From NCBI GenBank assembly GCA_009777055.1, contig WRMQ01000001.1, positions 11,141 to 75,140 of the forward strand: DNA of 64,000 nt, read 5' to 3'. The first letter of the stretch is position 1. Each line of letters starts with the position of its first letter. The position numbers and the translations under genes are program-made. Below are positions 13,115-47,607 of the stretch, one piece after another. Under the pieces are notes generated by a model. It saw only the letters and a list, made by a program, of their open reading frames with translations, did no database searches and was not told where the DNA came from. This stretch comes from Oscillospiraceae bacterium (GTDB lineage Bacteria; Bacillota; Clostridia; Oscillospirales; Acutalibacteraceae).

Positions 13115-13444
13115 TCACAGCAGAGCCCGTACGGCCTCCACAATTTCGTCTTTTCCCGTGACGCCGACGCTGCGCCAGCGGGCCTGTCCGCCCCGCGCCG
13201 CAACAATCGTCGGGATGCTCATCACGCCATAGGAGGCGGCCAGCTCCGGCTGCGCCTCAATATCCACCTTATAAAACGCCGCCTGCCCGCCCAGCGCCGC
13301 CTCGGCCTGGGCAAACAGCGGCCCCTGAATCCGGCACGGGCCGCACCAGTCCGCGTAAAAATCCAGCACAACCGGCATTTTGTCCGATTGCAGCATGGTC
13401 TCGAGTTCCTTCGTCAGCTCTTTTGTCAACAGCTTCATTGTCAT
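13115..13444 (-). CDS. trxA: Thioredoxin
   Basis: WCGPC active site, 109 aa. Confidence 0.9.
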   Translation of the reverse strand: MTMKLLTKELTKELETMLQSDKMPVVLDFYADWCGPCRIQGPLFAQAEAALGGQAAFYKVDIEAQPELAASYGVMSIPTIVAARGGQARWRSVGVTGKDEIVEAVRALL

Positions 13445-16497: not shown

Positions 16498-16827
16498 ACC
16501 GTTATCGTACCACAACTGGCGGAATATTGCAAGCGTGTTTTTGAGGAAGAAAGCAATTTTATGATAAAACCGGCGGCGGCAGGATTTGAGAAGCGCCTGA
16601 CAATATCTGCGTGCAATTCAAGCAATGTATTCCCGCTTATTGTGAATTAAGAAAAATAAAGATATATTTCAGGAAAAAAATGAAAAAACAGCCGGAATTT
16701 CGCTTGACAATGAGCGGATTTTCGTGTTATCGTTCCATAGCTTTAACGCGCAAAACACCAATTCGTAAAAGCCCTGCCAGGCAGGATGTCAAGCAACAAG
16801 CCTTTCAAAGCTTAAGGAGGACGAAAA

Positions 16828-19800: not shown

Positions 19801-22800
19801 GACTGCAACGGCGTCGTCTCAATGTCCTCCTCCTCCTCCTTTTATGGGGGATATGGCGGCGGCGTGTTTGTGGAAAGCGGCGGCGCCTTCACGATGAACG
19901 GCGGCGAGATCAAGAACTGTATGGCCCAGGCCGATGGCGGCGGTGTGTTCCTGAAGCCCAACGCCATTGGCGCGATGACCGGCGGCGTCATCCGCGATAC
20001 GAGGACTTACGGCAGCGGCGGCGGTATATATCTGTCGTACCAAAGCGTTTTCGTGATGGATGGCGGCGAAATCAACGATACCCACGCCTACGGCGGCAGC
20101 GGCGGCGGCGTGAACAGCCAGGAAGGCTCCTTCAGCATGAACGGCGGCCTGATTTCCGAAAGCTATGCCTACGGCGGGCCCGGCGGCGGCGTGTATGTCT
20201 ACAACACAGATTTCGTGATGACCGGCGGCACAATTACCGACAACTGCTCCTATGGAGGGCCCGGCGGCGGCGTGAGCATGACAAATGGCGACTTCAGCAT
20301 GAGCGGCGGCGAGGTTTCCAACAACATTACCTACAACGGCGGCGGCGGCGTGTATCTGTATGAGGGCGATTTCGCCATAAGCGGCAGCGCGAAAATTTCC
20401 GATAACTATACCACCGATGACGGCGGCGGCGTGTTTGTATCGTACGGCGACGCGGACATCAGCGGAAACGCCGTCATCAGCGGCAACACTGCGGAAGCGG
20501 AATATGGCCATTACGGCGGCGGCGGTGTGTATCTGTTTGAAGGCGACCTCAGCATGAGCGGCGGCACCGTCAGCGGCAACACCGTGGGACAGGGCTTCAG
20601 AGGCGGCGGCGGCATATTGGTGCGCAACAGCTGGATCGTCAGAAGCAGTGTCACCATGACCGGCGGCACGATCAGCGGCAATACCGTAGGTGAAAACGCC
20701 TGGGGCGGCGGCGGCATATACGTCGAAAACAGCGATTTTGTGATGAGCGGCGGCTCCATCACCGGCAACAGCGCCTCCGAAGCCTGGGGCGAAGGCGGCG
20801 GCGTGCTGCTGGATGAGGGCTCCTTCCTGATGCAGGGCGACGCGGATATCTCCGGCAACGATGCGGCCTGCGGCGGCGGCGGGCTGTACGCCTGCAACAC
20901 CATCATTGATATGCAGGGCGGCACGATCTCCGGCAACAGCGAGGGCGGTGTTGACGAATGGGGCAATGGCACCAGCTGGGGCGGCGGCGGCGTGATGCTC
21001 GACGGAGCCGTGATGACCATGTCCGGCGGCTCCATCACCGGCAACAGCACCCAGGCCGACGGCGGCGGCGTATATGCAGCTCACAACTACGGCGGCGAGC
21101 TGATCATGACCGGCGGCTCCATCACCGGCAACTCGGCGCCTGACGGATACGGCGGCGGCATCTATACGGGGGACTATTGGGACAGCTCCTCGAACGCCTA
21201 CGCTAACCCCGTGAACGCGGACGAAATGTACCGAAACATCACAATTGGCCCCGGAGCCACCGTCAGCGGGAACTCGGCCTTCAGCCGCTTCCTGGTGCCG
21301 TCGGGCATTGTGCCCGGCACGGGCCCCCTGGGCTTTGACCTGAACCTGCTGAACAACGACAATATCAACTGGGAGGGCGACGTGGACCCGAGCCGCTACC
21401 TGGTGTATAAGGACGCGGGCTGGGTTTTCATCGGCGATTATTTCTGGCTGGCCGACGCCATGGACCATTGCGGCACAGACGGGCCCTACACCATCGTCGC
21501 CACCCAGAACGACCAGGATCTGTCTGACACCTACGGGGGCGCCGGCGATTATCTGCCCCCCTTCCTTCAGACGCCCGCGCCGCCCACGATTCCGCCCAGC
21601 GGCGTATGGGCGGTGACGGTTCCCTCGAACAAGACCGTTACCTTCACCTCTGACGCGAACGGGACTTATGTCATCACGCAGCGGAAAACCTTTCACTTTA
21701 TTGTGAACGGCGGCCTGACCCTGGACGGCATCGTGCTCAGCGGCGGCTCCGGGACGGCCGGCAGTGTCACCGTGAACACCGGCGCGTCTCTGACCATGGA
21801 GCCCGGCGCGGTCATCCGCGATTGCCTTAACGTATATGGCGGCGGCGTGATGCTGTCAGCGGGCGGCGATTTCGTCATGAACGGCGGCGAAATCAAGAAT
21901 TGTACGGCGGGCTCCTACGGCGGCGGTGTGTATGCAAACGGCGGCACGTTCACGATGTATGCCGGTGTGATCAGCGGCAACTTTTCAAACGGCCTGGGCG
22001 GCGGCGTATACATGGATCATGGCTCTGTGTTCAACATGCATGGCGGTGCGATTACGGGCAATGAGGCGCCCTACTGGCATGGCGGCGGGGTTTCCGTGAA
22101 CGATACTCTCAACCAGGGCACCACCTTCACCATGACGGGCGGCAGCATCGACAACAACTGGGCCTACGGCTATGGCGGCGGTGTATACAACAATAGCGGG
22201 GATTTCAACGCCAGCGACAGCTTTATCGACAATAATATCTCGGCCAGCCATGGCGGCGGTGTGTATAATTACGCCAGCGAAAGCGGCACGATTACCCTGA
22301 CCCGCACCAGCGTCAGCGGCAATGAGATGCTGTATTACGGCCACGGCGGCGGCATATACAACGAAAGCACCGACATGCAAATAACCGACTGCGTCGTCAA
22401 CAACAACATCACGCCATACCAGGAAGGCGGCGGCATATACGCGGTGAACTGCGCCCTGGAAATCACCGACGGCGAAATCAAGGGCAACAGCGCGCAAAAC
22501 CTGAACGGCGGCGGCATATCAGCGATGTATTGCGACTTGGAGATCGCCGGCACCGAAATCAGCGGCAACTCCGCGCCGGTCGAATACGGCAGCGGCAGCG
22601 GCGCCGGCGGCGGCGGCGGCATATACGCGCTGTACTGCGACATTGAGATAAGAAGCGGCAGCACGATCAGCAACAACGCGGCGGGCGACAGAGGCGGCGG
22701 CGTATGCTCAATCTATTCCGACATTGATATCAGCGACAGCTTCATCGACAACAACACGGCGGTCAACAACGGCGGCGGCGTGTTCAACGCCAACGGCTCC

Positions 22801-24054
22801 GTCGGCATGATCGCCATCACCCGCAGCAGCGTCAGCGGCAATGAAGCGGGCGGAGATGGCGGCGGCGTGAACAACAGCTCAAACGAATTCCGCCTGACCG
22901 ACAGCGTCATCAACGGCAACAAGGCGGACAGCAACGGCGGCGGCCTGTACAACAATGTCTGCGATCTGTACCTGAACAATTGCACGATCACCGGCAACAC
23001 GGCGGGCGTTGACGGCGGCGGCCTGTGGGATTACTACAAGGATACCGTGGTCAGCGGAGGCACGATTTCGGGCAACAGGGCGGGCAACCATGGCGGCGGC
23101 GTGGAGCATGCGGCTTATTCCTTCACCCTGCGGGACGGCGCGGCGGTCACCGGCAATACGGCGGCGGCCGACGGCGGCGGCATATACAACCGGGGTCCCC
23201 TGACGATGCTCGACGGCGATGTTTCCGGCAACGAGGCGGGCGGCCACGGCGGCGGCATGTACGTGCGCTATGACGATTTCATCATGACCGGCGGCTCCAT
23301 CACCGGCAACAGCGCGCCCAACGGCGACGGCGGCGGCATCTTCGCCGAGGATTACGACTACAACGACCCGGTGGACGCCAGCCTGGGCTACACCAACCTG
23401 AGCATCAACTATGGCGGCGGCACGGGCCTGGTCAGCGGAAACACCTCCAGACAGAGAACCATGCCCCCGCAGGTGATCAACGGGCCGCTGAAGTTCAACA
23501 AAAACCTGCTGGATAACCACGAGATCAACCACACCAACGGCGCCGAGCCCACCACGCTGACCGTCACGAAAACGGCGGAAGGCCTCTTCGCGGACTTGTT
23601 CCGGGTATTCCCCTTCACGATATACCTCACGGACGGGGACGACCTGCCGCTCAGCGCGGGCAAGGAGCTGCCCTACACCGGCAGCGCCACGGGCACGCTG
23701 GTGCTCGACGGCGACGGCAAGGCGGCGTTCGGGCTTGCCCACGGGCAGAGCATCATCTTCGACCTGGTGCCGCTGGACGGCAAGGTGCGCATTGTGGAGT
23801 TCGACGACCCGAGCTACGCGGAGTCCTTCATTGACAGCGAGGACGGCATAAGCGTTCCGGGCAGCGACACGGGCCTGCTGGAGATGACCGCGGACCGAAG
23901 CTTCGCCTTCCATAACCAGAGCACCATCATCGTCGGCGGCATAGAAGCCGGCAGCCTGGCGGCCCTGTTCCCGCTGGTCCTGATTCTCTTGGCGGGCGCG
24001 GCGGTAATCATGTGGCAGGCGGCGCGGCGGCGCCGCGGGAGGGCCGCGGCATGA
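16828..24054 (+). CDS. Giant (2408 aa) cell-surface beta-helix repeat adhesin, probable pilus tip protein
   Basis: Signal peptide MKLRRSIAMLMAGLVVSLLILPIAGTQA. N-terminal SdrD/CnaB-like domain. Dozens of GGG(V/I)(Y/F)...F(T/S)M.GG.I..N repeats in three modules. One Listeria-Bacteroides-type repeat. C-terminal CnaB-like domain, hydrophobic helix and RRRRG tail. Confidence 0.85.
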   Translation: MKLRRSIAMLMAGLVVSLLILPIAGTQAQEPDASSISGALWVDGNGMLPTDWNGLRDEGEPPLAGYSVALYAFDDREEPIDSTVTDEQGEYIFEGVASGSYVLGLVSGFAGGNEYLLPMAVTQESVFAIDWQSEPLTAWSAEIVIAGDDEAVTGMDAGMRLPMGIVPLAGEFVVSGAASGVYDSLADAISAVNAGPAGTYTVTVGKNETMAAGPLVIDAGRNVTLQSSGGPWTVMYAGSGKHIKVEGQLTLKNLTLDGANNAGGIEVSYGGAQLTMEAGAVITHCRVGVNCYGNFVMNDGLITENVGFNGLGVSINNGASFTMYDGEISRNVSNDAGNGGGVYNNYGMFTMHGGRIIENQNEFGGGVYSALSGSVGFIMHGGEISDNVAFSSGGGVRIGLGGFEMHGGEISRNQTGGGMYDSTGGGIYFSSISSFTMTDGEITGNNAIGGYGGGFAVNGSCAATLSGGAIYGNEATAGGGIRFSGSYPLNLDGVEIYGNKAEQSGGGILNNSSSPSIMSAGRIYDNEAVRGGGLLNGMFSSFTMNGGEISENRAQGTVVMYGTVELAAGGGVYNEQRGSFTMNGGEITRNESGGDGGGVYNKATFDLYSGGKITDNTAAGSGGGVYAGYDDDFSTSSTFTMHGGEISGNIAGSDGGGVYAERYNSSSFGYFFMDGGLITGNTAGGDGGAIFSGDYDYGDPSDPQRYSNIGVAPSAVVSGNTAQRGFLPPINAVDFTNRSTNPFDGDLMTNHEINYRIPSIKITYKANGGGGLDVIQDTGVLITDAPAVGLTIKTQAETGFTAPMGSGAAFLGWNTQSNGLGTHYDEGQTPVSLNSSIILYAQWDFAYRYVVTKDSDGSPAGSYHWLQDAVDACGTDGAYTITLTGENDDDMTDRYNSAGSPGVPVFVGTPTSGNSVYVAIPSGKSVTLTSDEYGPYYIRQQCMNMRHFVVEGDLTLANIELAGVGQYSMPLGGVDIAANASLTMEAGSAIRDCNGVVSMSSSSSFYGGYGGGVFVESGGAFTMNGGEIKNCMAQADGGGVFLKPNAIGAMTGGVIRDTRTYGSGGGIYLSYQSVFVMDGGEINDTHAYGGSGGGVNSQEGSFSMNGGLISESYAYGGPGGGVYVYNTDFVMTGGTITDNCSYGGPGGGVSMTNGDFSMSGGEVSNNITYNGGGGVYLYEGDFAISGSAKISDNYTTDDGGGVFVSYGDADISGNAVISGNTAEAEYGHYGGGGVYLFEGDLSMSGGTVSGNTVGQGFRGGGGILVRNSWIVRSSVTMTGGTISGNTVGENAWGGGGIYVENSDFVMSGGSITGNSASEAWGEGGGVLLDEGSFLMQGDADISGNDAACGGGGLYACNTIIDMQGGTISGNSEGGVDEWGNGTSWGGGGVMLDGAVMTMSGGSITGNSTQADGGGVYAAHNYGGELIMTGGSITGNSAPDGYGGGIYTGDYWDSSSNAYANPVNADEMYRNITIGPGATVSGNSAFSRFLVPSGIVPGTGPLGFDLNLLNNDNINWEGDVDPSRYLVYKDAGWVFIGDYFWLADAMDHCGTDGPYTIVATQNDQDLSDTYGGAGDYLPPFLQTPAPPTIPPSGVWAVTVPSNKTVTFTSDANGTYVITQRKTFHFIVNGGLTLDGIVLSGGSGTAGSVTVNTGASLTMEPGAVIRDCLNVYGGGVMLSAGGDFVMNGGEIKNCTAGSYGGGVYANGGTFTMYAGVISGNFSNGLGGGVYMDHGSVFNMHGGAITGNEAPYWHGGGVSVNDTLNQGTTFTMTGGSIDNNWAYGYGGGVYNNSGDFNASDSFIDNNISASHGGGVYNYASESGTITLTRTSVSGNEMLYYGHGGGIYNESTDMQITDCVVNNNITPYQEGGGIYAVNCALEITDGEIKGNSAQNLNGGGISAMYCDLEIAGTEISGNSAPVEYGSGSGAGGGGGIYALYCDIEIRSGSTISNNAAGDRGGGVCSIYSDIDISDSFIDNNTAVNNGGGVFNANGSVGMIAITRSSVSGNEAGGDGGGVNNSSNEFRLTDSVINGNKADSNGGGLYNNVCDLYLNNCTITGNTAGVDGGGLWDYYKDTVVSGGTISGNRAGNHGGGVEHAAYSFTLRDGAAVTGNTAAADGGGIYNRGPLTMLDGDVSGNEAGGHGGGMYVRYDDFIMTGGSITGNSAPNGDGGGIFAEDYDYNDPVDASLGYTNLSINYGGGTGLVSGNTSRQRTMPPQVINGPLKFNKNLLDNHEINHTNGAEPTTLTVTKTAEGLFADLFRVFPFTIYLTDGDDLPLSAGKELPYTGSATGTLVLDGDGKAAFGLAHGQSIIFDLVPLDGKVRIVEFDDPSYAESFIDSEDGISVPGSDTGLLEMTADRSFAFHNQSTIIVGGIEAGSLAALFPLVLILLAGAAVIMWQAARRRRGRAAA

Positions 24055-24602
24055 CGCGGGAAGACCAGGCGGACCAGGTCCGCGAGCGGCCGGCCGGCGG
24101 CCCGCCCCCCCCAACGCTTTGGCGCGAGCTGAGAACCTTTGCCATCAAAATCGCGGCGATCGCGGGCATCGGGATGCTGCTGCTGACCTTCGTTTACGGG
24201 CTGCACTACAACCGGGAAGCCGGCATGAGCCCCTCGCTCAAGGACGGCGATCTGGTGGTGTATTACCGCCTGGACAAGGACTACCGTGCCGGAGACCTTC
24301 TCCTGCTGGTTTTCCAGGGAGAAAAGCAGCTGCGCCGGGTCATCGCCTGCGCGGGCGACACGGTGGATATTACCAGCGAGGGGCTCGTGATCAACGGCGC
24401 GCTCCAGCAGGAGCGGGAGATCTACCGGAGAACCGAGCGCTACGCGGAGGGCATCGAATTCCCCCTGACCCTGAACGAGGGCGAGGTCTTCGTTCTCGGC
24501 GACGCGCGCGACAATGTCACCGACAGCCGCGTCTATGGCCCGGTAAAAACGGGCGACACCCTGGGAACCGTGATCGCGGCCCTCAGGCGCAGAAATCTGT
24601 AG
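24051..24602 (+). CDS. Signal peptidase I homologue lacking the Ser/Lys dyad (SipA/LepA-like pilus accessory protein)
   Basis: S26 fold boxes are present (GDLVVY, GDARDNVTDSRVYG). However, box B reads AGMSPSL (Gly where the catalytic Ser sits) and box D reads RRVIACAGD (Arg where the Lys sits). ATGA overlap with the adhesin stop. Confidence 0.75.
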   Translation: MTREDQADQVRERPAGGPPPPTLWRELRTFAIKIAAIAGIGMLLLTFVYGLHYNREAGMSPSLKDGDLVVYYRLDKDYRAGDLLLLVFQGEKQLRRVIACAGDTVDITSEGLVINGALQQEREIYRRTERYAEGIEFPLTLNEGEVFVLGDARDNVTDSRVYGPVKTGDTLGTVIAALRRRNL

Positions 24603-24668
24603 CGATATAGACATGCTCCCCCAAAAGATCATGTTTGTATAAATTCAAAAAAACAGGAGAGACAAGAA

Positions 24669-25973
24669 ATGAAAAAGACCAAAATCCTGCTGGCAATGCT
24701 GCTGGCGCTCACCCTGGCCCTCAGCGCGGGCCTGATGACCGCGTTCGCGGACGAGCCCGACCCCAACATCCCCTTTGGCACACTCAGCGATCCCGCCCAG
24801 GCGGCCATCACCAAGATCCTGCAAATGCCGGAAGGCACGAACCTCCCCACCGCGAACTTCCTGTTCAACGTGGCCTCCCAGAGCGCGCCCACCGGTGTGG
24901 CGTCGCAGGACATTCCCATGCCCGGCACCGCCGGCGTGGTCACCATCAGCTTTGACCCCTCCAGCCTCACAAACGTTACCGTGAACACGGCAGGCGGCGT
25001 TACCCGGTACATCAAAGAGTCGGCGAGCCTGTTCGCGGGCAAATCCTGGCCGGTCCCCGGCGAGTACGTGTACACCATCACTGAGGACGACAGCGCCAGC
25101 TACACCGCCGGCACGAACGAGACAGTGATCTATTCCGGAGCCTCCTACCAGCTCACCGTGTATGTCAAGCAGGACAGCGACAGCGGCACCAATTATATCT
25201 TTGCCATCGGCATGATCAGCATCACAGAGGATGACGGCGAACCGGGCGACCCGGCGCTTAAGAAAGACCCGACCCCCGGCAGCATCAGCCTGACCAATGA
25301 TTACAGCCAGATGATCTTCACCAACAGCTTCATGAAGGTGAATGGCGACAGCGAAACCGACGTGAAAAACCTGAGCATCGAAAAGCTGACCGACGGCGAC
25401 TTCAGAGACGTGACCGAATACTTCAACTTCACCCTGACCATCACCCTTCCCCCCATGGCTGTCGCCGCGGGCCTGGGCGCAGCCTCCTACGAAGCGGTCG
25501 TTCTGGACGACCAGGATGACAACGTGACGGTGGAGCTCAACGGCGCCGCCGACGACGCCGACGGCTTCATCACGGTTGTGCCCGGCACCCCGCTGAACTT
25601 CAGCCTCAAGCATGGCGAGCGCCTGGTGATCCCCGAGCTGCCCATCGGCACCACCTATGCCATTTCGGAAATCAGCCCCACCAACTACATCCCCACCCTG
25701 ACCGTCCTTTCCGGCGGCACTGCGGTTAGCGGCCTTCCGGCCGGCGCGCTGAGCTCGACCCTTACCGCCTCCGGGCTGATCGTGGCCGACACGGCGCCGA
25801 CGACCAACGGCGCGAACAGCGCGCTGTTCACCAACCTGCGCAATGATATCAACATCACGGGCCTGAACATCAACGACCTGCCCTTTATCGGCATGATCGC
25901 CCTGGCGCTGGCCGCCGGCCTGTTCCTCCTGGCGGCGAAAGCCCGCAAGGCGAAGAAGGGCTACAGCTGCTAA
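24669..25973 (+). CDS. Spy0128/FctA-type pilin (probable backbone subunit)
   Basis: Signal peptide. Pilin isopeptide-domain hallmark PGEYVYTITEDD. C-terminal hydrophobic helix plus KARKAKK tail, preceded by DLPFIG. Confidence 0.7.
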   Translation: MKKTKILLAMLLALTLALSAGLMTAFADEPDPNIPFGTLSDPAQAAITKILQMPEGTNLPTANFLFNVASQSAPTGVASQDIPMPGTAGVVTISFDPSSLTNVTVNTAGGVTRYIKESASLFAGKSWPVPGEYVYTITEDDSASYTAGTNETVIYSGASYQLTVYVKQDSDSGTNYIFAIGMISITEDDGEPGDPALKKDPTPGSISLTNDYSQMIFTNSFMKVNGDSETDVKNLSIEKLTDGDFRDVTEYFNFTLTITLPPMAVAAGLGAASYEAVVLDDQDDNVTVELNGAADDADGFITVVPGTPLNFSLKHGERLVIPELPIGTTYAISEISPTNYIPTLTVLSGGTAVSGLPAGALSSTLTASGLIVADTAPTTNGANSALFTNLRNDINITGLNINDLPFIGMIALALAAGLFLLAAKARKAKKGYSC

Positions 25974-26031
25974 GCAAAAGCGAACACTGACTGAATGAGC
26001 GCGCAGGCGCTCTGAAAGGAGAGACCCGCAC

Positions 26032-27036
26032 ATGGGCGTAGCGGCCAAAACCGGCATAAAAGCGATACGGCTGGCAAACGGAGCCCTTGATACGGCAGTC
26101 CTGGCCATCGTACTGCTGCTGATCGCCATTGGCTGCTACGCCATGTGGGACTCGAAGCAATTATTTGACGCGGCAACCGCTGAGAAGTTCGCGGTTTATA
26201 AGCCCGGCGCCGAGGAGGACAGCCCCTCCTTCGAGCAGCTGCGGGCCATGAACCCGGAGGTGTTCGCCTGGCTTACGGTATACGGCACGAACATCGATTA
26301 CCCGGTTGTGCACAGCCCGGACGAAAGCCAGAAGTATGTCAGCGCCGACGCTCTGGGACGATATTCGCTTTCCGGCTCGATATTCCTCGGAAGCGAGCAC
26401 AGCCCCGGCTTCGCGGACTTCAGCAGCATCCTCTATGGCCACCACATGGAAAAGCAGGCCATGTTCGGAGAAATCGGACTCTTTGTCGAAAAAAGCTATT
26501 TCGACGCGCGGCAATACGGCATGCTGTACTTCGGCGGGCGGGCGCACGGGCTGGAATTTTTCGCCTTCCTCCACACCGACGCCTACGACGGCACGATATA
26601 CAGAGCTGGCATCAATGGGCGGGAAGAGCGCGGCGCGTACCTGGATTTGCTGCTTGCCCGGTCGATTCATACCCGCGGCGTCCCGGTGACGGCGGACGAC
26701 AAAATCGTTCTGCTTTCCACCTGCTCGGGCGCATCGACCAACGGACGGGATATTCTCGTCGGAAAAATCACGGATGAGCCCCGCGAAGACCCGTTTGAAA
26801 CGGAAAAACCGGACAACGCGATGGCGCTGGCGGTAGACAGGCTGCCCGGATTGTGGGCGCGGAGCCCGCGATGGGTTAAAATCAGCCTGATTTGCCTGCC
26901 GCTGTTTATCCTGCTGTTGCTGCTGTCCTTGATCATACGAAACACCAGGCAAAAAAATAATAATAAGCAAAAAAACGAGCAAAAACGCACCAATCGAAAA
27001 CAAACCAAAAAGTTACCCGACAAGGGGGGCACATGA
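26032..27036 (+). CDS. Class B sortase
   Basis: NIDYPVVH, ILYGHHM, VLLSTCSG. N-terminal TM helix plus an extra C-terminal TM and basic tail. Confidence 0.8.
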   Translation: MGVAAKTGIKAIRLANGALDTAVLAIVLLLIAIGCYAMWDSKQLFDAATAEKFAVYKPGAEEDSPSFEQLRAMNPEVFAWLTVYGTNIDYPVVHSPDESQKYVSADALGRYSLSGSIFLGSEHSPGFADFSSILYGHHMEKQAMFGEIGLFVEKSYFDARQYGMLYFGGRAHGLEFFAFLHTDAYDGTIYRAGINGREERGAYLDLLLARSIHTRGVPVTADDKIVLLSTCSGASTNGRDILVGKITDEPREDPFETEKPDNAMALAVDRLPGLWARSPRWVKISLICLPLFILLLLLSLIIRNTRQKNNNKQKNEQKRTNRKQTKKLPDKGGT

Positions 27037-28250
27037 AAATGAAATTGCAAAAGCGAACCGGAAAGATTTTGCTGAGCGGCCTGATTCTATCCTGCCTGCT
27101 TTGCCTGCTGATGCCCATGGCGTCCGCCGCGCCGGCGGCGGTTACGCTGACGGTGAATCAGGTGTTTGCCAAGCCGGCCGCGGCCGGGCCGCTGGCGGAA
27201 ACTTTTCAATACCGGCTGGAGCCCATACAGGCCACCAACCCCATGGTCATGGGGACGGTTGCCGGTGTCTATGCCTTTTCCATTACGGGAAACTCTGAAT
27301 TTGACATAGGTCCGATCGCGTTCCCGTCGCCGGGCAAATACAGCTATAGGCTGCTCCATGCCACGGAACCGGCGGCAGGCTATGTCTATGACGAGACGGT
27401 CTATACGCTGGAGGTTCTCGTGAAAGCCGACGGGACATACAGCGTTGTGGCCTCCAAAGAGGGGGGCGACAAGCAGGAGGCTCTGGAGTACAGGCATTCC
27501 TACCAGACCAATGCCAGCGACCCTCTCGTGATGGTGGACCCGCCTGTGGTGAAGACCGTGATCGGTATCCCCCGAAGCCCCGCGCTCTTCAGCTTTGAGC
27601 TGGTGGCGGGCAGCCCCGGCAACCCCATGCCGGCCGGCTCGGTCGACGGCGTGAAAACCGTGTGGATCACGGGCTCCGGCAGCGCGGAGTTCGGCGTGTG
27701 GGCCTATACGCAGCCGGGTGTGTATTATTACACGGTCTCGGAGGTCAATACCGGCGCGAGAGACTATAACTATGACACAACCGTATACACTATCACCGAC
27801 ACGGTGAGTGCCGTGGACGGGGAGCTTGAGGTATCGCGGGTGGTGACCAACGGCGCGAACCGGCAGGTGACGTCGCTGTCGTTCATCAACATCTACAAAG
27901 GCTCCGCGCAGATCCCGGCGATCCCCATTCCGGTGCCGGTCCCGCTGCCGCTGCCGGTGCCTGTTCCGCTGCCGGTTCCGGGGGCGACAGGGCCGGGGGA
28001 TCCGGGAGATCCAGGCGCTCCGGGCGTTCCGGGCGTTCCGGGCGCAGCCGGGCCCAATGATCCCGTGCCGGCGGGCACAGGCGGAACTGGTTCGAATAAC
28101 GCCAAGCTGCCCGGCAAGGGACCTAAAACCGGCGACGAGTCTCAGACCCTGCTGTTCACCTTCCTTTTCTGCGCCGGAACCGCGGCGGCGCTGTTCAGCG
28201 CGGGCTACCTGGTGATACCCGGGAGGCGCAGGGCGAATAAGAGAGGATAG
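27033..28250 (+). CDS. Spy0128-type pilin with proline-rich stalk (probable basal/minor subunit)
   Basis: Two domains with PGKYSYRLLHATE and PGVYYYTVSEVN. Stalk IPAIPIPVPVPLPLPVPVPLPVPG...GDPGDPGAPGVPGVPG. Sorting signal GPKTGD, then hydrophobic helix and RRRANKRG. Confidence 0.75.
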   Translation: MKMKLQKRTGKILLSGLILSCLLCLLMPMASAAPAAVTLTVNQVFAKPAAAGPLAETFQYRLEPIQATNPMVMGTVAGVYAFSITGNSEFDIGPIAFPSPGKYSYRLLHATEPAAGYVYDETVYTLEVLVKADGTYSVVASKEGGDKQEALEYRHSYQTNASDPLVMVDPPVVKTVIGIPRSPALFSFELVAGSPGNPMPAGSVDGVKTVWITGSGSAEFGVWAYTQPGVYYYTVSEVNTGARDYNYDTTVYTITDTVSAVDGELEVSRVVTNGANRQVTSLSFINIYKGSAQIPAIPIPVPVPLPLPVPVPLPVPGATGPGDPGDPGAPGVPGVPGAAGPNDPVPAGTGGTGSNNAKLPGKGPKTGDESQTLLFTFLFCAGTAAALFSAGYLVIPGRRRANKRG

Positions 28251-28252
28251 AT

Positions 28253-29002
28253 ATGCGCAAAAAAAAGGGCCGAAGAATCGCCGCGTGTCTGGTTTTGACG
28301 CTGTCTGTGCCTGTCATGGCGCTGGCCGGCTGGCGTCTGGCGGGCATATGGCAATCCAACCGGGAGGGCAGGGACAGCTATGCGCGCCTGGCCGATTCGG
28401 TGCGCCGCGAATTGCCCGCGCGGGATACGGACGCGGGCGGCAGGGTCATTGATTTCGCGGCGCTGCAAGCGGTCAGCCCGGACGCCGTGGCCTGGCTGGA
28501 ATGCCCGGGCACCGTCATCGATTATCCGGTGATGCGCGCGGCGGATTACAACCACTACCTGCACCGCCTGCCGGATGGCAGCTATAACGCCAACGGCTCC
28601 CTGTTCATTGATTTCAACTGCGCGCCCGATTTCACGGACCAGCTGACGGTTGTCTACGGACACAACATGAAATCGGGGCAGATGTTCGGCTCGCTTACCA
28701 AATACAAGGACCAGGCATATTACCGGGAGCACCCGTATTTTCTGCTCTACACCGCGGGCGGCGGCGCGGCACAGCGCATTGACCTGCTGTACGGCTGCGT
28801 GATCGACGCGGCGCAGTGGCGGGAGCGGGCCTTCTCCTACCAGGTGAATCTGGAGGCGCTGCTGGCCTATGCCGCCTACAACACCACGTTCGACAGCCAG
28901 ACGCAATACAGCCCGGAAGACAGGGTTGTGGCTTTGTCCACCTGCTCCTATGAGTTTGAAGGCGCCCGCTATGTGGTGCTCGGTGTGCTGCGAAGCCAAT
29001 GA
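28253..29002 (+). CDS. Class B sortase
   Basis: VIDYPVMR, VVYGHNMKSGQMFG, VALSTCSY. N-terminal TM helix. Confidence 0.8.
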   Translation: MRKKKGRRIAACLVLTLSVPVMALAGWRLAGIWQSNREGRDSYARLADSVRRELPARDTDAGGRVIDFAALQAVSPDAVAWLECPGTVIDYPVMRAADYNHYLHRLPDGSYNANGSLFIDFNCAPDFTDQLTVVYGHNMKSGQMFGSLTKYKDQAYYREHPYFLLYTAGGGAAQRIDLLYGCVIDAAQWRERAFSYQVNLEALLAYAAYNTTFDSQTQYSPEDRVVALSTCSYEFEGARYVVLGVLRSQ

Positions 29003-34190: not shown

Positions 34191-34207
34191 TGGCGTCACT
34201 CCTTTCC

Positions 34208-34270
34208 AATTCTCAATTCTCAATGCTCAATTCTCAATTTTCAATGCTTAATGCTCAATGCTTAATCTCA
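34208..34270. repeat. Degenerate heptanucleotide array (about 9 units, ATTRAGN on the minus strand) between thiI and cinA
   Basis: Minus strand reads aattgag attaagc attgagc attaagc attgaaa attgaga attgagc attgaga attgaga, running directly into GGAAAGGAG (the cinA SD). Confidence 0.85.
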
Positions 34271-34275
34271 ATTAT

Positions 34276-35445
34276 TTATTCGATCCAGTGGCTCTGCGTG
34301 TTTTCGAGCGCTTCCCGGATGAGCTCGTCCGCGTCCAGGGCTGCCTCGGCCTGTTCCACGAAATGGAGCTTGGGCCGGGTCCGCGGATGCCTGGGGGTGA
34401 ACACGGTACAGCAATCCTCAAAAGGCAAAATGGAGATTTCATAGGTGCCGATCTGTCTTGCCAGGCGCACGGTGTCCTCCTTGTCCATGCCGATGAGGGG
34501 GCGGAAGACCGGCAGGCCGGTCGCGGCGTCGGTGCAGACCAGAGCCTGAAGGGTCTGGCTGGCCACCTGGCCAAGCTGCTCCCCCGTGATGAGGGCGTGG
34601 CAATTGTTTTCCCGGGCGATCTGTTCCGCGATGCGCATCATAAAGCGCCGCATGACCAGCGTGAACAGCTCCTCGGGGCACTTTTGCCGGATCTCCTCCT
34701 GGATTTTGGTGAAGCCCACCACGTGCAGCCGCACGCGGCCGCTGTATTTTGCCACCTGGCGCAGGAGCTTATGCACCTTTTCCTCGGCCCGGGCGCTGGT
34801 ATAGGGCGGCGAGGCGAAGTGAACCGCCGTGAGCCGCAGACCGCGCCTTGCCATCATCCAGGCGGCGGCGGGGCTGTCGATTCCCCCGGAGATCAGTACG
34901 GCGGCGTCCCCCGCCGAGCCGGTGGGAAGCCCGCCCGCGCCCTTGACCTGGTCGGCGTGGAGAAAGGCGAATTGCTCGCGCACCTCCACCATGACGGTGA
35001 CCTCGGGCCTATGGACGTCAACGCGCAGATGGGGAAAGCGTTCGAGCAGGTACCCGCCCGCGGTTTCGCAGATCTGCGGGGATTTCAGCGGGAAGGTTTT
35101 ATCGGAGCGTTTGGCCTCAACCTTGAAGGTTTGGGCGTATCGCAGCACCGGGGCTAAGTACTCCGCGCAGCCCTCCAGGATCGCGCGGATGTCCTTGGGA
35201 ACGCGGGCGGCGCGGGCATAGGCGGAGATGCCGAACACCCGGCCGGCTCTTCTGGCGGCCTCCTCCATATCCATGCCCGCCGAAAGCGGAATGGCCTGGA
35301 TGGTGGATTGCGCCAGTATGAACTGCCATTCGCCCAGGGGCCGCAGCCGCCGGCGCAGGGTGCCGATGAGCTGCTGCTCAAAGCCGCTGCGGTTTTGACC
35401 CTTCAAGGCGAGTTCGCCGGATTTGATGAGCAGGACTTCGTTCAT
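34276..35445 (-). CDS. thiI: tRNA 4-thiouridine synthase ThiI
   Basis: MNEVLLIKSGELALKGQNR N-terminus. PP-loop LISGGIDSPAAAWMM. Confidence 0.9.
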   Translation of the reverse strand: MNEVLLIKSGELALKGQNRSGFEQQLIGTLRRRLRPLGEWQFILAQSTIQAIPLSAGMDMEEAARRAGRVFGISAYARAARVPKDIRAILEGCAEYLAPVLRYAQTFKVEAKRSDKTFPLKSPQICETAGGYLLERFPHLRVDVHRPEVTVMVEVREQFAFLHADQVKGAGGLPTGSAGDAAVLISGGIDSPAAAWMMARRGLRLTAVHFASPPYTSARAEEKVHKLLRQVAKYSGRVRLHVVGFTKIQEEIRQKCPEELFTLVMRRFMMRIAEQIARENNCHALITGEQLGQVASQTLQALVCTDAATGLPVFRPLIGMDKEDTVRLARQIGTYEISILPFEDCCTVFTPRHPRTRPKLHFVEQAEAALDADELIREALENTQSHWIE

Positions 35446-35543
35446 ATGCTTTACCTTAATAAAAATAAAAAATAGTGAAAAACAAAAAACAGTGCAAGCG
35501 AATAAAAAAATAAAAAATAGTGCAAGCGAATAAAAACGGGCGC

Positions 35544-36674
35544 TTATTTTCTGGCCAGGGTCAGGCGGGCCTCGTTGAGCGCGTAGAGGAAGGCGTCGAT
35601 CTCCTCCCATGTGGTGAAGCGCGAAAGGCTGATCCGCAGCGCGCCCGCGATATCCGCGTCGCCCAGGCCCATAGCGCGCAGCACGCGGCTCTTTTTCCCC
35701 TTAGCGCAGGCCGATCCCGACGAGACGCAGATCCCGCGCTCCGAAAGGAAATTGAGCATGGTCTCCGATTGGAGCCCGGGTACGGAAAGGTTGGTCAGAT
35801 AGGGCAGGGCGTCGGGCGGGGAGTTGAGCTTTACGCCCTCCATTGAGGCGGCGCCGGCCACGAGGCGGTCCCGCAGGGAGCTGACATAATCCATAATAGC
35901 CATGGGGTTCGGCAGCGCGCGCACGGCGGCGGAAAATCCGGCGATGGCGGGCATGCCCTCTGTGCCGGGCCGCAGGCGGTTTTCCTGCGAGCCTCCGTAG
36001 ACCAGCGGGTTAAGCTTCACGCCCCGGCGCACATAGAGCGCGCCCGCGCCCTTTGGGCCATGAATTTTGTGGGAGCTTACGGTCATGAGATCAACACCGA
36101 GGCGCGCGGGCTGCATAGGCAGCTTGCCAAAGGCCTGCACCGCGTCGCAGTGGATGAGTGCCGGCGCGCGGTGATACTGCACCACGCGGCGGATGACCTC
36201 CACCGGCTGCAGGGAGCCCACCTCGTTGTTCACTGCCATGAGGCTGACGAGAATGGTCTCGGCATTGATGGCCTGCATGAGCTCCTGCTCCGAAACCCGT
36301 CCGCCGCGGTCGACACTGAGATAAACCACCTCAAAGCCGCGTGAGGCGAGCTCCTTCACGCTTTCGGCGATGCTGGAGTGCTCCACGGCCGAGGTCACGA
36401 CCCGGCGGCCGCGCCGCCGCAGGGCGTTGGCCGCGCCGAAGATGGCGAGGTTATTGCTTTCCGTGCCTCCGCTGGTGAAGGTCACCTCGGCGGGCTCGCA
36501 GCCAAACAGCTCCGCCAGCGATTCCCGGCTTTGCGCCAGCAGGCGCTCGGCGTTCAGGCCGGCCCAGTGAAGAGAGGAGGGATTGCCCCAAACCGTGGTG
36601 AGCGCCTCGCGCATGGCCGCGATGGCTTCGGGGCAGGGTGGGGTAGTCGCAGAATTGTCAAGATAGGCTTCCAC
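35544..36674 (-). CDS. iscS: Cysteine desulfurase (NifS/IscS type)
   Basis: PLP lysine motif SSHKIHGPKGAGALY. C-terminal active-site Cys in VSSGSAC. GTG start. Confidence 0.85.
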   Translation of the reverse strand: MEAYLDNSATTPPCPEAIAAMREALTTVWGNPSSLHWAGLNAERLLAQSRESLAELFGCEPAEVTFTSGGTESNNLAIFGAANALRRRGRRVVTSAVEHSSIAESVKELASRGFEVVYLSVDRGGRVSEQELMQAINAETILVSLMAVNNEVGSLQPVEVIRRVVQYHRAPALIHCDAVQAFGKLPMQPARLGVDLMTVSSHKIHGPKGAGALYVRRGVKLNPLVYGGSQENRLRPGTEGMPAIAGFSAAVRALPNPMAIMDYVSSLRDRLVAGAASMEGVKLNSPPDALPYLTNLSVPGLQSETMLNFLSERGICVSSGSACAKGKKSRVLRAMGLGDADIAGALRISLSRFTTWEEIDAFLYALNEARLTLARK

Positions 36675-37152: not shown

Positions 37153-37449
37153 TCAGCCCGGCAGCAGCCTGCCCTGATCGTCCTCTTCGTCCAGCAGCCA
37201 GTTGACGCTGACCTCCAGCACCTGCGCCAGATATTTCAGCTCAATGTCAGACACGAAGCGATATTGCCCCTCCAATTTCGATAAGCCGGAGGCGTTCAGA
37301 TCGACGCCCTTGATCTGCAGCTGCGTGAGCAGATCTTTTTGCTTCATGTGCAGTTCTTTGCGGCGCTGCTCAATGCGCGCGCCAACGATGTTTCGGTTTC
37401 CCAATGCTTGCTGCCTGGTTCTCAATGTCCTTCCCCCTTTTTGCTTCAT
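37153..37449 (-). CDS. XRE-family helix-turn-helix regulator
   Basis: HTH segment MKQKDLLTQLQIKGVDLNASGLSKLEGQYRFVSDIELKYLAQVLEVSVNWLL. Divergent from scfA. Start codon is uncertain (track ORF extends to 37506). Confidence 0.7.
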   Translation of the reverse strand: MKQKGGRTLRTRQQALGNRNIVGARIEQRRKELHMKQKDLLTQLQIKGVDLNASGLSKLEGQYRFVSDIELKYLAQVLEVSVNWLLDEEDDQGRLLPG

Positions 37450-37572
37450 TTGCTTCAACATGCCTATTATAGCAAACTTTCGGTGATTTTGCAAGGGTTT
37501 TTCCAAAAAAATGCAGGATATGGATCCAAAAAATGCAGGCCGCGGAGGCGTATGCTTCTTGCGAACACGCTC

Positions 37573-37601
37573 TTGACATTTTGTCCGGCATGCGCTATAC
37601 T
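37573..37601 (+). promoter_or_regulatory. Sigma-70-type promoter of the scfA operon
   Basis: TTGACA, a 17-nt spacer and TATACT, about 95 nt upstream of the scfA ATG. Confidence 0.6.
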
Positions 37602-37697: not shown

Positions 37698-37847
37698 ATG
37701 GAACGGATTATCACCCTCGAAACCCGCGATCTGGCGGCCAGCTGCGCCGGCGGCGGCTGCGGTGAGTGCCAAACCTCCTGCCAGTCGGCCTGCAAAACCT
37801 CCTGCGGCCTGGCCAACCAGTGCTGCGAGCAGACGGAGGAGGCCTAG
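37698..37847 (+). CDS. scfA: SCIFF (six-cysteines-in-forty-five) ribosomal peptide precursor
   Basis: Not in the ORF track (49 aa). RBS GAAAGGGGAG lies 8 nt before the ATG. Product is MERIITLETRDLAASCAGGGCGECQTSCQSACKTSCGLANQCCEQTEEA, which contains the SCIFF core GGCGECQTSCQSACKTSC. Confidence 0.9.
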   Translation: MERIITLETRDLAASCAGGGCGECQTSCQSACKTSCGLANQCCEQTEEA

Positions 37848-37878
37848 GCGTCATCTTAAGCGTCAATCAATGAGAAAA

Positions 37879-37913
37879 ACGGCAAGTGGCAGTATGCACC
37901 GCTTGCCGTTTTT
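37879..37913 (+). terminator. Intra-operon hairpin + T-run (attenuator) between scfA and the radical SAM gene
   Basis: ACGGCAAGTGG ... CCGCTTGCCGT followed by TTTTT. The next gene's ATG is 14 nt downstream. Confidence 0.6.
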
Positions 37914-37926
37914 ATTGGGGGTCCAT

Positions 37927-39045
37927 ATGACCACAGTCAGCGTATTGATCAAGCCTGCCAGCGGCCAGTGCAACCTGCGCTGCCGCTACTGCTTCTATCG
38001 CGACGAAACCGAAAAGCGCGCCGCGGCCAGCTTTGGCGTCATGAGCGAGGAGACGCTGCGGGCTGTGCTGCAAAAGCTCCTCGCGGCGGCGGAGGATAGC
38101 TGCGCCATCGTCTTCCAGGGCGGGGAGCCGACCCTGGCGGGACTGGACTTTTTTCGCAGGGCCGTGTGCCTGGCGGAAGCGCTGAACGTCAACGGCTGCG
38201 AGCTGCGCTTTGCCCTGCAGAGCAACGGCCTGCTCCTGGACGAGGCCTGGTGCGCTTTTCTGGCGGAGCGGAAATTTCTTGTGGGGCTCTCTCTGGACGG
38301 CCCCCGGGCCCTGCATGACCGCAACCGGGTTGACACGAAGGGGCAGGGCAGCTACGCGCGGGCGAGACGGGCCCTGGGGCTGCTGAAAAAGCACGGTGTG
38401 GATGTGAATATCCTGAGCGTGATCACGGCGCAGACCTGCGGCGAGGTCCGGCGGACCAACGCGTTCTTTTCGGAGGCCGGGCTGCGCTGGCGGCAGGGGA
38501 TCCCCTGCCTGGACCCCCTGGGGGAGACGCGGGGCCAAAAGCCCTGGGCACTGACGCCGGAGGCCTATGAGCGCTACCTGAAAACGGCCTTCGACTGCTG
38601 GTACGAGGATGAAACGCGGGGCCGTCCGACCTATCACCGCAGCTTTGAAAATCTGTTGATGCTGCTGGCCGGGCAAGCGCCCGAGGCCTGCGGCATGCTG
38701 GGCGTATGCGGCCCGCAATATGTTGTGGAGGCCGACGGCGGCGTGTATCCCTGCGATTTTTATGTGCTGGACGCGTACCGCCTGGGCAGTCTGGTCACGG
38801 ACAGCCTGGCGCGGATCGATGCCAGACGCGCTGCGCTGGGCTTTATTGAGGAAAGCCCCTGCCGGGATCCGGAATGCCGCGCGTGCCGGTGGCATCCCCT
38901 GTGCCGCGGCGGCTGCAGGCGGGACAGGGACTACTTCGAAGCCGGCCTGGGCCGGAATTATTACTGCCGGGCATACCGCGGCTTCTTCGAATACGCCTAT
39001 GAGCGGCTGGAGGAAATATATCGGAGGAGGCTTGCCCATGCTTGA
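37927..39045 (+). CDS. anSME-type SPASM radical SAM enzyme
   Basis: Starts directly at the cluster motif MTTVSVLIKPASGQCNLRCRYCFY. FQGGEPTLAGL, FLVGLSLDGP, GGVYPCDFYVLD, CRGGCRR and NYYCRAYRGFFEYA match C. perfringens-type anaerobic sulfatase maturases. No ScfB-type N-terminal domain. The track ORF 37339..39045 is an artefactual N-terminal extension. Confidence 0.8.
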   Translation: MTTVSVLIKPASGQCNLRCRYCFYRDETEKRAAASFGVMSEETLRAVLQKLLAAAEDSCAIVFQGGEPTLAGLDFFRRAVCLAEALNVNGCELRFALQSNGLLLDEAWCAFLAERKFLVGLSLDGPRALHDRNRVDTKGQGSYARARRALGLLKKHGVDVNILSVITAQTCGEVRRTNAFFSEAGLRWRQGIPCLDPLGETRGQKPWALTPEAYERYLKTAFDCWYEDETRGRPTYHRSFENLLMLLAGQAPEACGMLGVCGPQYVVEADGGVYPCDFYVLDAYRLGSLVTDSLARIDARRAALGFIEESPCRDPECRACRWHPLCRGGCRRDRDYFEAGLGRNYYCRAYRGFFEYAYERLEEIYRRRLAHA

Positions 39046-39868
39046 TTTTACGCAATCTCTCGTTCCCTCTCTCCTCTTTTTTCTCGTGGGCCTCATTGCC
39101 TCCGCCCTGGGCGCCGTGAGCGGCCTGGGCGGCGGGGTTATCATCAAGCCCGCGCTGGACATCCTGGGCCTGGCGGACGCCGCGGTCTCCAGCCTCTTTT
39201 CTGGCTGCACCGTGCTGGTTATGTGCGTCTACACCACTGTCAATGCGCAATGCGCAGTGCGCAGCGCGCGAGTATCCGGCGAGGCCAGGGAAAAGGGGAT
39301 TGACTGGCGCGTCGTTCTTCCCCTGGCGGGGGGCGCGGTAATTGGCGGCGCGGCGGGAAAATGGCTGTTTCAGCGGCTGGCCGGGGCGCTCTCGGTGCCG
39401 GCGGCGGGGCGCGCGCAGGCGATATGCCTGGCGGCTGTTATGGGCCTCCTGCTGCTGTTTATGCTGTGCAGGAAGCGGATCAAAACGCATGAGATACGGC
39501 ACCCGGCCCTGTGTGTTCCCGTGGGGGCCGTGCTGGGGGCATGCGCGGGCTTTTTAGGCATCGGCGGCGGGCCGCTGAACATGATCGCGCTGCTGTGGCT
39601 GTTTGGCATGGAAACGAAATCCGCCGCGAAGAGCTCTTTGGCGGTGATGATCTTCAGCCAGGGCTCCGCGCTGGCGATGCTGCTGCTCGCCGGGGACCTG
39701 CCGGTTTTTCCGCCCTGGGCCCTGGCGCTGATGCTCCTGGGGGGCTTTTTGGGTGGCGAGACAGGCCGCAGGATACGAAAGAGGCTCAGCAACGCGGCGG
39801 TGGACCACCTGCTGGCGGCCATGATCGCGGTAATCATCATGATCAGTGCGTACAACGCAATGAAGTAA
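39038..39868 (+). CDS. TSUP (TauE/SafE) family membrane permease
   Basis: Polytopic membrane protein with LGGGVIIKPALDILG and FLGIGGGPLNMIAL motifs. The ATG overlaps the radical SAM gene end by 8 nt. Confidence 0.75.
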   Translation: MLDFTQSLVPSLLFFLVGLIASALGAVSGLGGGVIIKPALDILGLADAAVSSLFSGCTVLVMCVYTTVNAQCAVRSARVSGEAREKGIDWRVVLPLAGGAVIGGAAGKWLFQRLAGALSVPAAGRAQAICLAAVMGLLLLFMLCRKRIKTHEIRHPALCVPVGAVLGACAGFLGIGGGPLNMIALLWLFGMETKSAAKSSLAVMIFSQGSALAMLLLAGDLPVFPPWALALMLLGGFLGGETGRRIRKRLSNAAVDHLLAAMIAVIIMISAYNAMK

Positions 39869-41334: not shown

Positions 41335-41445
41335 TTAAAAATCAGTAATTTGCGATTATATTTTCCTGGGCTGAATGACTGCCTTTCTAGTGTATTTAGC
41401 TAGGAAGGCGGTTATTTTCTTTGCCGGAACGGCCCTGACAATGTC

Positions 41446-41480
41446 ATTGAGCATTGAGCATTGAGAATTGAGAATTGAAA
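41446..41480 (+). repeat. Heptanucleotide array (ATTGAGN x5) abutting the lepB SD
   Basis: attgagc attgagc attgaga attgaga attgaaa, followed by GAAAGGAGG, 8 nt and TTG. Confidence 0.85.
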
Positions 41481-47521: not shown

Positions 47522-47524
47522 TTT

Positions 47525-47607
47525 TAGATTTTAGACGTCAGACTTTAGACATTAGATGCTTGTTGGGCAGCAAAGTCTAAAGTCTAAAGTCTAAAGTCTA
47601 AAATCTA
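47525..47607 (+). repeat. Heptanucleotide array (AAGTCTA x4 + AAATCTA) forming a long hairpin with an upstream complement, abutting the ricT SD
   Basis: Array at 47573-47607. TAGATTTTAGAC (47525-36) pairs with GTCTAAAATCTA (47596-607), and GACTTTAGAC (47541-50) pairs with GTCTAAAGTC. SD GAAAGGA follows at 47608. Confidence 0.85.

Follow-up and report, generated by a model that had tools for sequence, protein, structure and literature searches.

Reciprocal gene orders at a SCIFF locus and a sulfatase locus of an Oscillospiraceae bacterium, probably produced by a single inversion

Described systems and the arrangement in the window

Three types of described loci come closest to the gene arrangement analyzed here. 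In the canonical SCIFF system (scfA/scfB; CteA/CteB in C. thermocellum and Tte1186a/Tte1186), a precursor with the invariant core GGCGECQTSCQSACKTSC is encoded behind a strong promoter, a terminator hairpin lies directly 3' of scfA, and the maturase is a full-length ScfB carrying an RRE domain. In the clostridial sulfatase/anSME operons, typified by anSMEcpe (PDB 4K36-4K39), the enzyme has three [4Fe-4S] sites as well as the residues Y24 and D277, and the partner is a Cys-type CxPxR sulfatase. The third type comprises the sulfatase-anSME-TauE clusters of gut Oscillospiraceae, for example Ruthenibacterium lactatiformans, and a related sulfatase-anSME pair in locus L151.

The window, that is, the whole stretch of 64 kb of DNA that was analyzed, shares all the named features of the SCIFF system. 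However, the gene following scfA encodes an anSME, whereas scfB is found behind a sulfatase gene on the opposite strand, at a distance of 23 kb, and starts with GTG. Likewise, the named features of the sulfatase/anSME operons are present, including the CxPxR sulfatase in the same genome region, but the sulfatase gene is not adjacent, the enzyme gene follows that of a RiPP precursor, and the HMM scores of the enzyme fall slightly short of the cutoffs. With the clusters of the third type the window has in common an orthologous anSME (60-62% identity) that is tightly coupled to TauE; in contrast to them, scfB and not the anSME gene overlaps the sulfatase stop codon.

Identity of the genes at the two loci

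The scfA gene (37698-37847, forward strand) corresponds to a 49-aa ORF that had been missed in the annotation and that the original prediction had already assigned to SCIFF. Its product, MERIITLETRDLAASCAGGGCGECQTSCQSACKTSCGLANQCCEQTEEA, contains 8 cysteines, and an HMM search yielded 68.9 bits against TIGR03973 (cutoff 50) and 68 bits against PF13165 (cutoff 27). These scores and the six-cysteine core motif identify it as a SCIFF precursor, the sole SCIFF-type ORF within the window, although the gene directly downstream is not its own ScfB (TIGR03974). The core is fully canonical, the peptide has two additional cysteines, and the C/S-x-P/A-x-R motif targeted by anSMEs is absent from it. The ORF is intact, and the peptide terminus lies within one or two residues of the ends of its orthologs.

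As predicted, scfA is preceded by a near-consensus sigma-70 promoter (37573-37601, forward strand; TTGACA-17-TATACT), which agrees with the consensus at 11 of 12 positions. TTGACA-17-TATACT is also found upstream of scfA in the relative L064, where 15 nt over the -10 region are identical. Between scfA and the next gene lies a spacer of 79 nt (37848-37926, forward strand) that consists of an A-tract, a GC hairpin, a U-run, and a GGGGG ribosome binding site. The hairpin, which extends from about 37875 to 37913 and is followed by the U-run up to about 37916, has a loop of 9 nt and a minimum free energy of -29.2 kcal/mol (z = -3.2). A hairpin and T-run at this place had been noted before, and they proved to be a usual feature of canonical scfA-scfB spacers (present in 66 of 72), the median length of which is 76 nt. 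When relatives were searched at the nucleotide level for counterparts of the spacer and hairpin, none was retrieved beyond the -10 region of the promoter. Given the matching length and hairpin design, we interpret the spacer as a putative ancestral scfA-scfB spacer. On the other side of the promoter, a small divergent gene (37153-37506, reverse strand; 90-117 aa, depending on the choice of the start codon) was present as stated, but its designation as an XRE regulator was weakly supported by matches far under their cutoffs (HTH_19, E = 0.01; DicA, E = 4.4e-6), and we refer to it as a putative HTH protein. No homolog of it adjoined scfA in 80 other loci.

The enzyme encoded directly downstream of scfA (37927-39045, forward strand; MCL2105490.1) is a radical SAM/SPASM protein of 372 aa. 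Only 14 residues precede its CxxxCxxC motif (C15/C19/C22), and the N-terminal extension typical of ScfB, an RRE/leader-binding domain of about 100 aa, is lacking. Its scores were 387.7 bits against NF010321 (cutoff 441), 338.3 bits against TIGR03942 (cutoff 349.45), and only 80 bits against the ScfB model TIGR03974 (cutoff 425). The proposed comparison of TIGR03942 with TIGR03974 therefore placed the enzyme on the anSME side and not in the ScfB clade, albeit marginally below the curated anSME cutoffs. Sulfatase-linked anSME orthologs reached 341-364 bits against TIGR03942 and none of them attained the NF010321 cutoff; by this measure, the enzyme is no more divergent than these orthologs. Alignment with anSMEcpe (PDB 4K36/4K37) was collinear over residues 3-364, with 44.7% identity and E = 2e-104. 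The Fe-S ligands of anSME have been listed, including the eight cysteines that provide full ligation of both Aux I and Aux II (PMC5715301). All 11 cluster cysteines are conserved in the enzyme (C15/19/22, C255/261/276/330, and C317/320/326/348), as are Y24 and D277. A C/S-x-P/A-x-R sulfatase, usually encoded nearby, is also present in the genome, in this case as a CVPSR sulfatase at a distance of 23 kb. The roles of D277 and Y24 in anSME were reportedly described by Goldman et al. in 2013. Taken together, the protein is an orthodox anaerobic sulfatase-maturating enzyme with predicted formylglycine-forming activity. At NCBI, it is named "SPASM domain-containing protein", and the ENA call is 383 aa long, in comparison to 372 aa here.

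The third gene of the forward-strand group (39038-39868) encodes a TauE/SafE (TSUP) anion permease, in agreement with the initial assignment. The PF01925 score was 110.6 bits for residues 14-267, far above the gathering threshold of 32.6, and no NCBIfam equivalog matched the permease. Its start overlaps the end of the anSME gene by 8 nt, and by virtue of this overlap its translation is predicted to be coupled to that of anSME. Pairs of the two genes, in the order anSME-TauE or TauE-anSME, occur within sulfatase clusters of Ruthenibacterium, Faecalicatena, and Succinivibrio.

At the second locus, on the reverse strand, a gene for a Cys-type sulfatase (14884-16515; MCL2105475.1; PF00884, 136.5 bits) with a CVPSR motif and no signal peptide is followed by scfB. 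At its C-terminus, the sulfatase is collinear with its orthologs and ends no more than one or two residues from where they do, and the protein is the presumed substrate of the anSME. Because the sulfatase ends as its orthologs do, the idea that its C-terminal tail had been displaced to a position after scfA (a hypothetical ...GLGVILSVNQ) was rejected. The pair had been recognized before, but its second member (13508-14887, reverse strand; MCL2105474.1) had been called ScfB-like, which understates its identity. It scored 680.3 bits against TIGR03974 (cutoff 425), with residues 2-456 of the protein covering positions 1-450 of the 451 positions of the model. It has an N-terminal RRE domain, and every motif was intact in an alignment with nine homologs; it is a genuine ScfB, the SCIFF maturase that is predicted to form thioethers. 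The sulfatase stop codon and the scfB start codon overlap by 4 nt (GTGA), and GTG is the start codon of scfB in this genome and of none of 75 other scfB genes. Downstream of scfB lies a thioredoxin gene (13115-13438, reverse strand; PF00085, 76.5 bits), which was also called in locus L055.

Gene order in related loci

The ScfB gene was the next gene after scfA in 75 of 76 surveyed scfA loci, and an anSME gene in none of the 76, so that the arrangement found here is not the standard one. Conversely, no SCIFF gene was found near anSME homologs in the 54 genome loci and four metagenome contexts examined. The scfA-anSME order was thus seen in one lineage only. Relatives with the scfA-scfB order have the same promoter and an ATGA overlap. 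In L151, an orthologous sulfatase gene (74% identity) is followed by an orthologous anSME gene (62% identity) with an ATGA overlap, that is, the same 4-nt stop/start overlap that connects sulfatase and scfB in the window, and in Ruthenibacterium the order is sulfatase-anSME-TauE. Among three orthologous sulfatase contexts, an anSME gene adjoins P0245 only, and none is found beside P0244 and P0242, the closest orthologs. The flanking genes (thioredoxin, HflX, NifS, ThiI, the HTH protein, an M19 peptidase, and RplS) were compared with 80 scfA loci without a match. Because no flanks are shared, the flanks prior to the rearrangement are unrecoverable and synteny is unusable for this question.

A single inversion and the alternatives

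The two loci are reciprocal, as had been proposed: ScfB is encoded behind the sulfatase and anSME behind scfA, so that the two systems have exchanged their upstream partners. From the junction sequences, the ancestral-type arrangements in relatives, and the spacer architecture we infer, with a probability of roughly 70%, that one inversion exchanged the 5' halves of two ordinary operons and left their chemistry unchanged in trans. The ancestor would have had scfA, the spacer, and scfB, possibly with the thioredoxin gene, on one strand and, at a distance of about 23 kb, sulfatase-anSME-TauE on the opposite one. A single inversion spanning about 23.04 kb (14887-37927), with a break within (A/G)TGA at the start codon of each SPASM maturase gene, would have brought scfA, together with the strong promoter and the terminator spacer, ahead of anSME-TauE, and the sulfatase gene ahead of scfB. 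Reversing it would restore both canonical operons. As the hairpin in the spacer is the normal scfA-scfB hairpin, the break is placed at the anSME start codon, and the GTG start of scfB fits a first base donated from the sulfatase side.

According to the inversion model, each enzyme probably serves its own substrate in trans. The anSME would still convert Cys61, which lies in the sulfatase CVPSR motif, to formylglycine by oxidation, and ScfB would still bind the SCIFF leader via its RRE domain and install the Cys-to-Thr thioether, both post-translationally. The consequence would be regulatory and not chemical, in that anSME-TauE would rely on read-through of the scfA terminator, while ScfB would be translationally coupled to the sulfatase. 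If the inversion took place, the locus represents a natural experiment, in which a RiPP precursor and its maturase, which are nearly always transcribed together (75 of 76 loci), were uncoupled and each was placed on the promoter of the other system. The intactness of all four genes after the uncoupling would then argue that ScfB and anSME are adequate in trans. It would also mean that an exchange at start codons can build hybrid operons, and that genome mining can be misled when it assigns the closest radical SAM gene to a precursor.

The model is burdened by the fact that it is improbable a priori for both breaks to coincide exactly with the start codons of paralogous genes, so that selection for intact genes or microhomology would be required. 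A genome with the pre-inversion order was not found in this lineage. Furthermore, the GC skew did not reveal a sign-flipped block of 23 kb; it thus contains no independent trace of the inversion, or the inversion is old. The missing inverted block would agree better with an alternative in which both enzymes are equally orthodox and act in trans, but the order arose by at least two independent rearrangements or insertions. This alternative, to which we assign a minor share of the probability, could also draw on the heavy rearrangement of the genome in comparison with its closest relatives, which have no flanks in common with it, and on the unlinked genes in other loci, namely scfA alone in L073 and pheT-scfB without scfA in L066. 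However, it needs two reciprocal events, each exactly at a maturase start codon, whereas the two junctions, the (A/G)TGA overlap at each of them, and the location on opposite strands all follow from a single inversion.

Much less probable is a functional re-partnering, in which the anSME was recruited for SCIFF, for instance to oxidize Cys or Ser or to introduce a new cross-link, with TauE as the exporter of the product or of a by-product and with a different role for ScfB. The chemistry of anSME, abstraction of a C-beta hydrogen, is mechanistically near ranthipeptide formation (PMC8326336), which counts for this possibility. The same is true for the common strand of scfA, the enzyme, and TauE, the leaky-looking terminator between the first two, the scores slightly under the trusted anSME cutoffs, and the two additional cysteines of SCIFF; co-transcription of scfA and anSME would suit a functional coupling. 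On the other hand, the enzyme lacks an RRE domain with which to recognize the leader, and SCIFF combines a canonical core with the lack of the anSME target motif. The enzyme retains all catalytic features of anSMEs and diverges no further than its sulfatase-linked orthologs, an intact ScfB and the CxPxR sulfatase persist in the genome, and the pairing occurs in a single lineage, as opposed to 0 of 76 scfA loci and no anSME locus among those examined. In addition, TauE proteins belong to a family of small-anion permeases that are encoded together with anSME in sulfatase clusters. Slightly less likely still, the anSME, now under the scfA promoter, might have gained activity on SCIFF or have possessed it all along, for the oxidation of one of the extra cysteines or for a cross-link not made by ScfB, so that two SPASM enzymes would serve one product. 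If the anSME modified SCIFF, this would be the first instance of a SCIFF being matured by an enzyme of the anSME type, and the action of two SPASM enzymes would link a putative quorum-sensing peptide with the activation of sulfatases. The new SCIFF modification/export pathway that had been suggested on the basis of the gene order is not supported by the sequence comparisons, as the enzyme is unremarkable, TauE pairs recur in sulfatase clusters, ScfB is present and intact, orthologous sulfatase and anSME genes are neighbors in L151, the order is confined to one lineage, and SCIFF has no target motif.

It is very improbable that both junctions are artefacts of assembly or binning, even though the source is a metagenome-assembled genome of an uncultured Oscillospiraceae bacterium and the two radical SAM genes resemble each other in inverted orientation over a short, imperfect stretch (48 nt, 73%, inside SPASM motifs). 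No long inverted repeats were present at the junctions and hence nothing that could mislead an assembler, and none of the four ORFs is interrupted or shifted in frame at a junction. In the separate assembly ERZ27257348, both junctions are located well within contigs, and the scfA/anSME junction was also recovered from a second sample, ERZ27257302, with 100% identity; overall, the nucleotide identities of these matches were 99.99-100%.

An orthodox anSME gene between scfA and a TauE permease gene

The ORF at 37698-37847 (plus strand) was indeed found to encode a SCIFF precursor of 49 aa, which carries the invariant core GGCGECQTSCQSACKTSC and passes both TIGR03973 (68.9 bits, cutoff 50) and PF13165 (68 bits). 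It contains eight cysteines instead of six, with seven in the nearest relative; the additional ones are located in ...AASCAGGG... (one) and ...NQCCEQ... (the CC). The near-consensus promoter proposed upstream of scfA (TTGACA-17-TATACT, 37573-37601) was present, as was the strong hairpin with a U-run (MFE -29.2 kcal/mol, z = -3.2) in the 79-nt spacer to the anSME gene, which also contains a GGGGG ribosome-binding site. The neighbor is divergent from scfA as described, but its XRE identity is weakly supported (weak HTH match).

The gene starting at 37927 on the plus strand encodes a radical SAM/SPASM protein of 372 aa. With its CxxxCxxC motif starting at residue 15, the protein lacks, as originally predicted, the N-terminal leader-binding domain of ScfB. 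Profile placement also agreed with the anSME-type assignment: the enzyme scored 387.7 bits with NF010321 and 338.3 bits with TIGR03942, versus 80 bits with the ScfB model. Residues 3-364 align with the crystallized Clostridium perfringens anSME (4K36/4K37; E = 2e-104, 44.7% identity), and the radical SAM triad (C15/C19/C22), the ligands of Aux I (C255/C261/C276/C330) and Aux II (C317/C320/C326/C348; ligand list from PMC5715301), Y24, and D277 are all conserved. Both NCBIfam anSME cutoffs were narrowly missed, which explains the generic name "SPASM domain-containing protein" of the NCBI entry (MCL2105490). This is normal for the clade: sulfatase-adjoining orthologs scored 341-364 bits with TIGR03942, and none of six scored orthologs reached the NF010321 cutoff.

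The 3' end of the enzyme gene shares the predicted 8 nt with a TauE/SafE permease gene (39038-39868; PF01925, 110.6 bits). Homologs of the anSME (31-58% identity) were examined in 54 genome loci: a sulfatase was located within 5 kb of the homolog in 24, the order sulfatase-TauE-anSME was found in two, and a SCIFF ORF in none. Furthermore, a 76% homolog adjoins a convergent sulfatase, a 65% homolog adjoins two sulfatases, and a 60% ortholog from Ruthenibacterium lies within a sulfatase-anSME-TauE-sulfatase-sulfatase cluster. Because of these sulfatase-linked contexts, anSME-TauE is best read as a recurring sulfatase accessory module, and not as a peptide-export device.

Rarity of the arrangement and verification of the junctions

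Eighty metagenomic scfA loci were surveyed, and 76 contained enough downstream sequence. The next gene encoded full-length ScfB in 75 of these and anSME in none, making the order in the window non-standard. The sole exception (locus L073) has an orphan scfA (142-306) followed by convergent genes, and no maturase was found in the 1.4 kb downstream. Another scfB unlinked from scfA (67% identity; L066, 10001-11386, ERZ27257346 k141_1120948) is located 29 nt after pheT, and no SCIFF ORF was found across that 21.4-kb locus, which extends for about 10 kb to either side of the gene.

The window stems from an NCBI metagenome-assembled Oscillospiraceae genome. A misassembly was rejected, because both junctions recur in the interior of two contigs of a separate ENA assembly (ERZ27257348), the scfA/enzyme junction recurs in a third sample (ERZ27257302), both with 99.99-100% nucleotide identity to the window, and no long repeat able to mislead an assembler was found at either junction. 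The two ERZ27257348 contigs that span the window meet at about 34889-34907, within the thiI ORF (34276-35610), and overlap there by about 19 bp.

A single inversion as the probable origin

The second junction is formed by a Cys-type sulfatase gene with a CVPSR motif (14884-16515, minus strand; MCL2105475), which overlaps the gene for a 459-aa protein (MCL2105474) by 4 nt (GTGA). The pair at 13.5-16.5 kb had been noted before, but "ScfB-like" understated the partner, which is a genuine full-length ScfB (TIGR03974, 680 bits versus a cutoff of 425). Orthologs of the sulfatase form a well-defined group, and the C-terminus of the window protein lies within one or two residues of theirs.

A canonical scfA-scfB pair with a 4-nt ATGA overlap is present in the nearest ScfB relative (68% identity; L064/L065), together with the same TTGACA-17-TATACT promoter as in the window. 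In locus L151, a sulfatase (74% identity to that of the window) is directly followed by an anSME (62% to that of the window) with an ATGA stop/start overlap. This context, one of three for sulfatase orthologs, was regarded as decisive for the ancestral order; the other two contained no adjacent maturase. Canonical scfA-scfB spacers have a median of 76 nt (75 loci), and a hairpin plus T-run occurs in 66 of the 72 that are at least 25 nt long. Because the 79-nt spacer follows this design, it most likely stayed with scfA as a whole. Elsewhere, scfB starts with ATG (70), TTG (4), or CTG (1), never with GTG; in the window it starts with a GTG overlapping the sulfatase stop. The sequence ...AAAAAAG of the sulfatase continues as TGATACACG (scfB), and ...TCCATA of the spacer as TGACCACAG (anSME), with (A/G)TGA common to both junctions.

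A reciprocal exchange inside TGA between these inversely oriented sites would be an inversion of about 14887-37927, which would convert the present order to scfA-spacer-scfB-trx and sulfatase-anSME-TauE, both found in relatives. One inversion would account for the two swaps together with the strand difference, the unusual GTG start of scfB, the spacer, and the preservation of the ORF ends. We infer that it gave rise to this locus as a hybrid of two known systems, specific to the lineage. The "partner exchange" of the original prediction is correct as a description of gene order. Breaks exactly at both start codons would require selection for intact genes. The pre-inversion order was found in no genome, the flanking regions are not syntenic with those of relatives, and GC skew gave no independent trace of an inversion. 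Several separate rearrangements could have produced the same order, but we consider this unlikely. Half of the putative inverted block is a surface-protein cluster, comprising a 2408-aa repeat-rich protein (16828-24054, plus strand; many GGGVY/GGGI-type repeats, a DUF7601 match, and a C-terminal membrane anchor) and a type I signal peptidase with further plus-strand genes (24012-29002).

Probably old chemistry in a new wiring

That the anSME was recruited to act on SCIFF is disfavored, as the enzyme is orthodox and lacks an RRE domain, SCIFF has a canonical core and no C/S-x-P/A-x-R motif, ScfB is retained in the genome, and only one lineage shows this gene order. A new SCIFF modification/export pathway is unsupported. 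The chemistry of both maturases is presumably unchanged. In the cytoplasmic sulfatase, the cysteine of the CVPSR motif would be oxidized to formylglycine by the anSME, and the RRE domain of ScfB would bind the SCIFF leader for formation of the Cys-to-Thr thioether, as described for CteB and Tte1186 (PMC8326336). Acting post-translationally, both would work in trans. anSME-TauE would now rely on transcripts that start at the strong scfA promoter and continue through the terminator, and ScfB would be translationally coupled to the sulfatase. The locus is of modest interest as a RiPP precursor naturally uncoupled from its own maturase, and a caution for neighborhood-based RiPP mining.

The closest sulfatase ortholog (77% identity) comes from a relative in which it ends an operon of the type MFS_2-(MFS_2)-sulfatase, whose genes overlap by 4 nt (L067, 693-3802, and L068, 6933-11590), suggesting import of a sulfated glycoside. 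The window sulfatase lacks adjoining transporters of this kind.

AT-rich heptanucleotide tandem arrays (AATTCTC/AATGCTC, 4.9-9.7 copies) are scattered through this GC-rich genome, at 14760-14793, 34207-34273, 41445-41478, 47523-47556, and 47572-47607. The first lies inside scfB and the others between ORFs. The scfB array is perfect, with 4.9 copies, and encodes INSQFSILNSQLN in frame in the variable loop of the N-terminal domain. Because the reading frame would change if a single 7-nt unit were gained or lost, slipped-strand events at the array could switch ScfB on and off.
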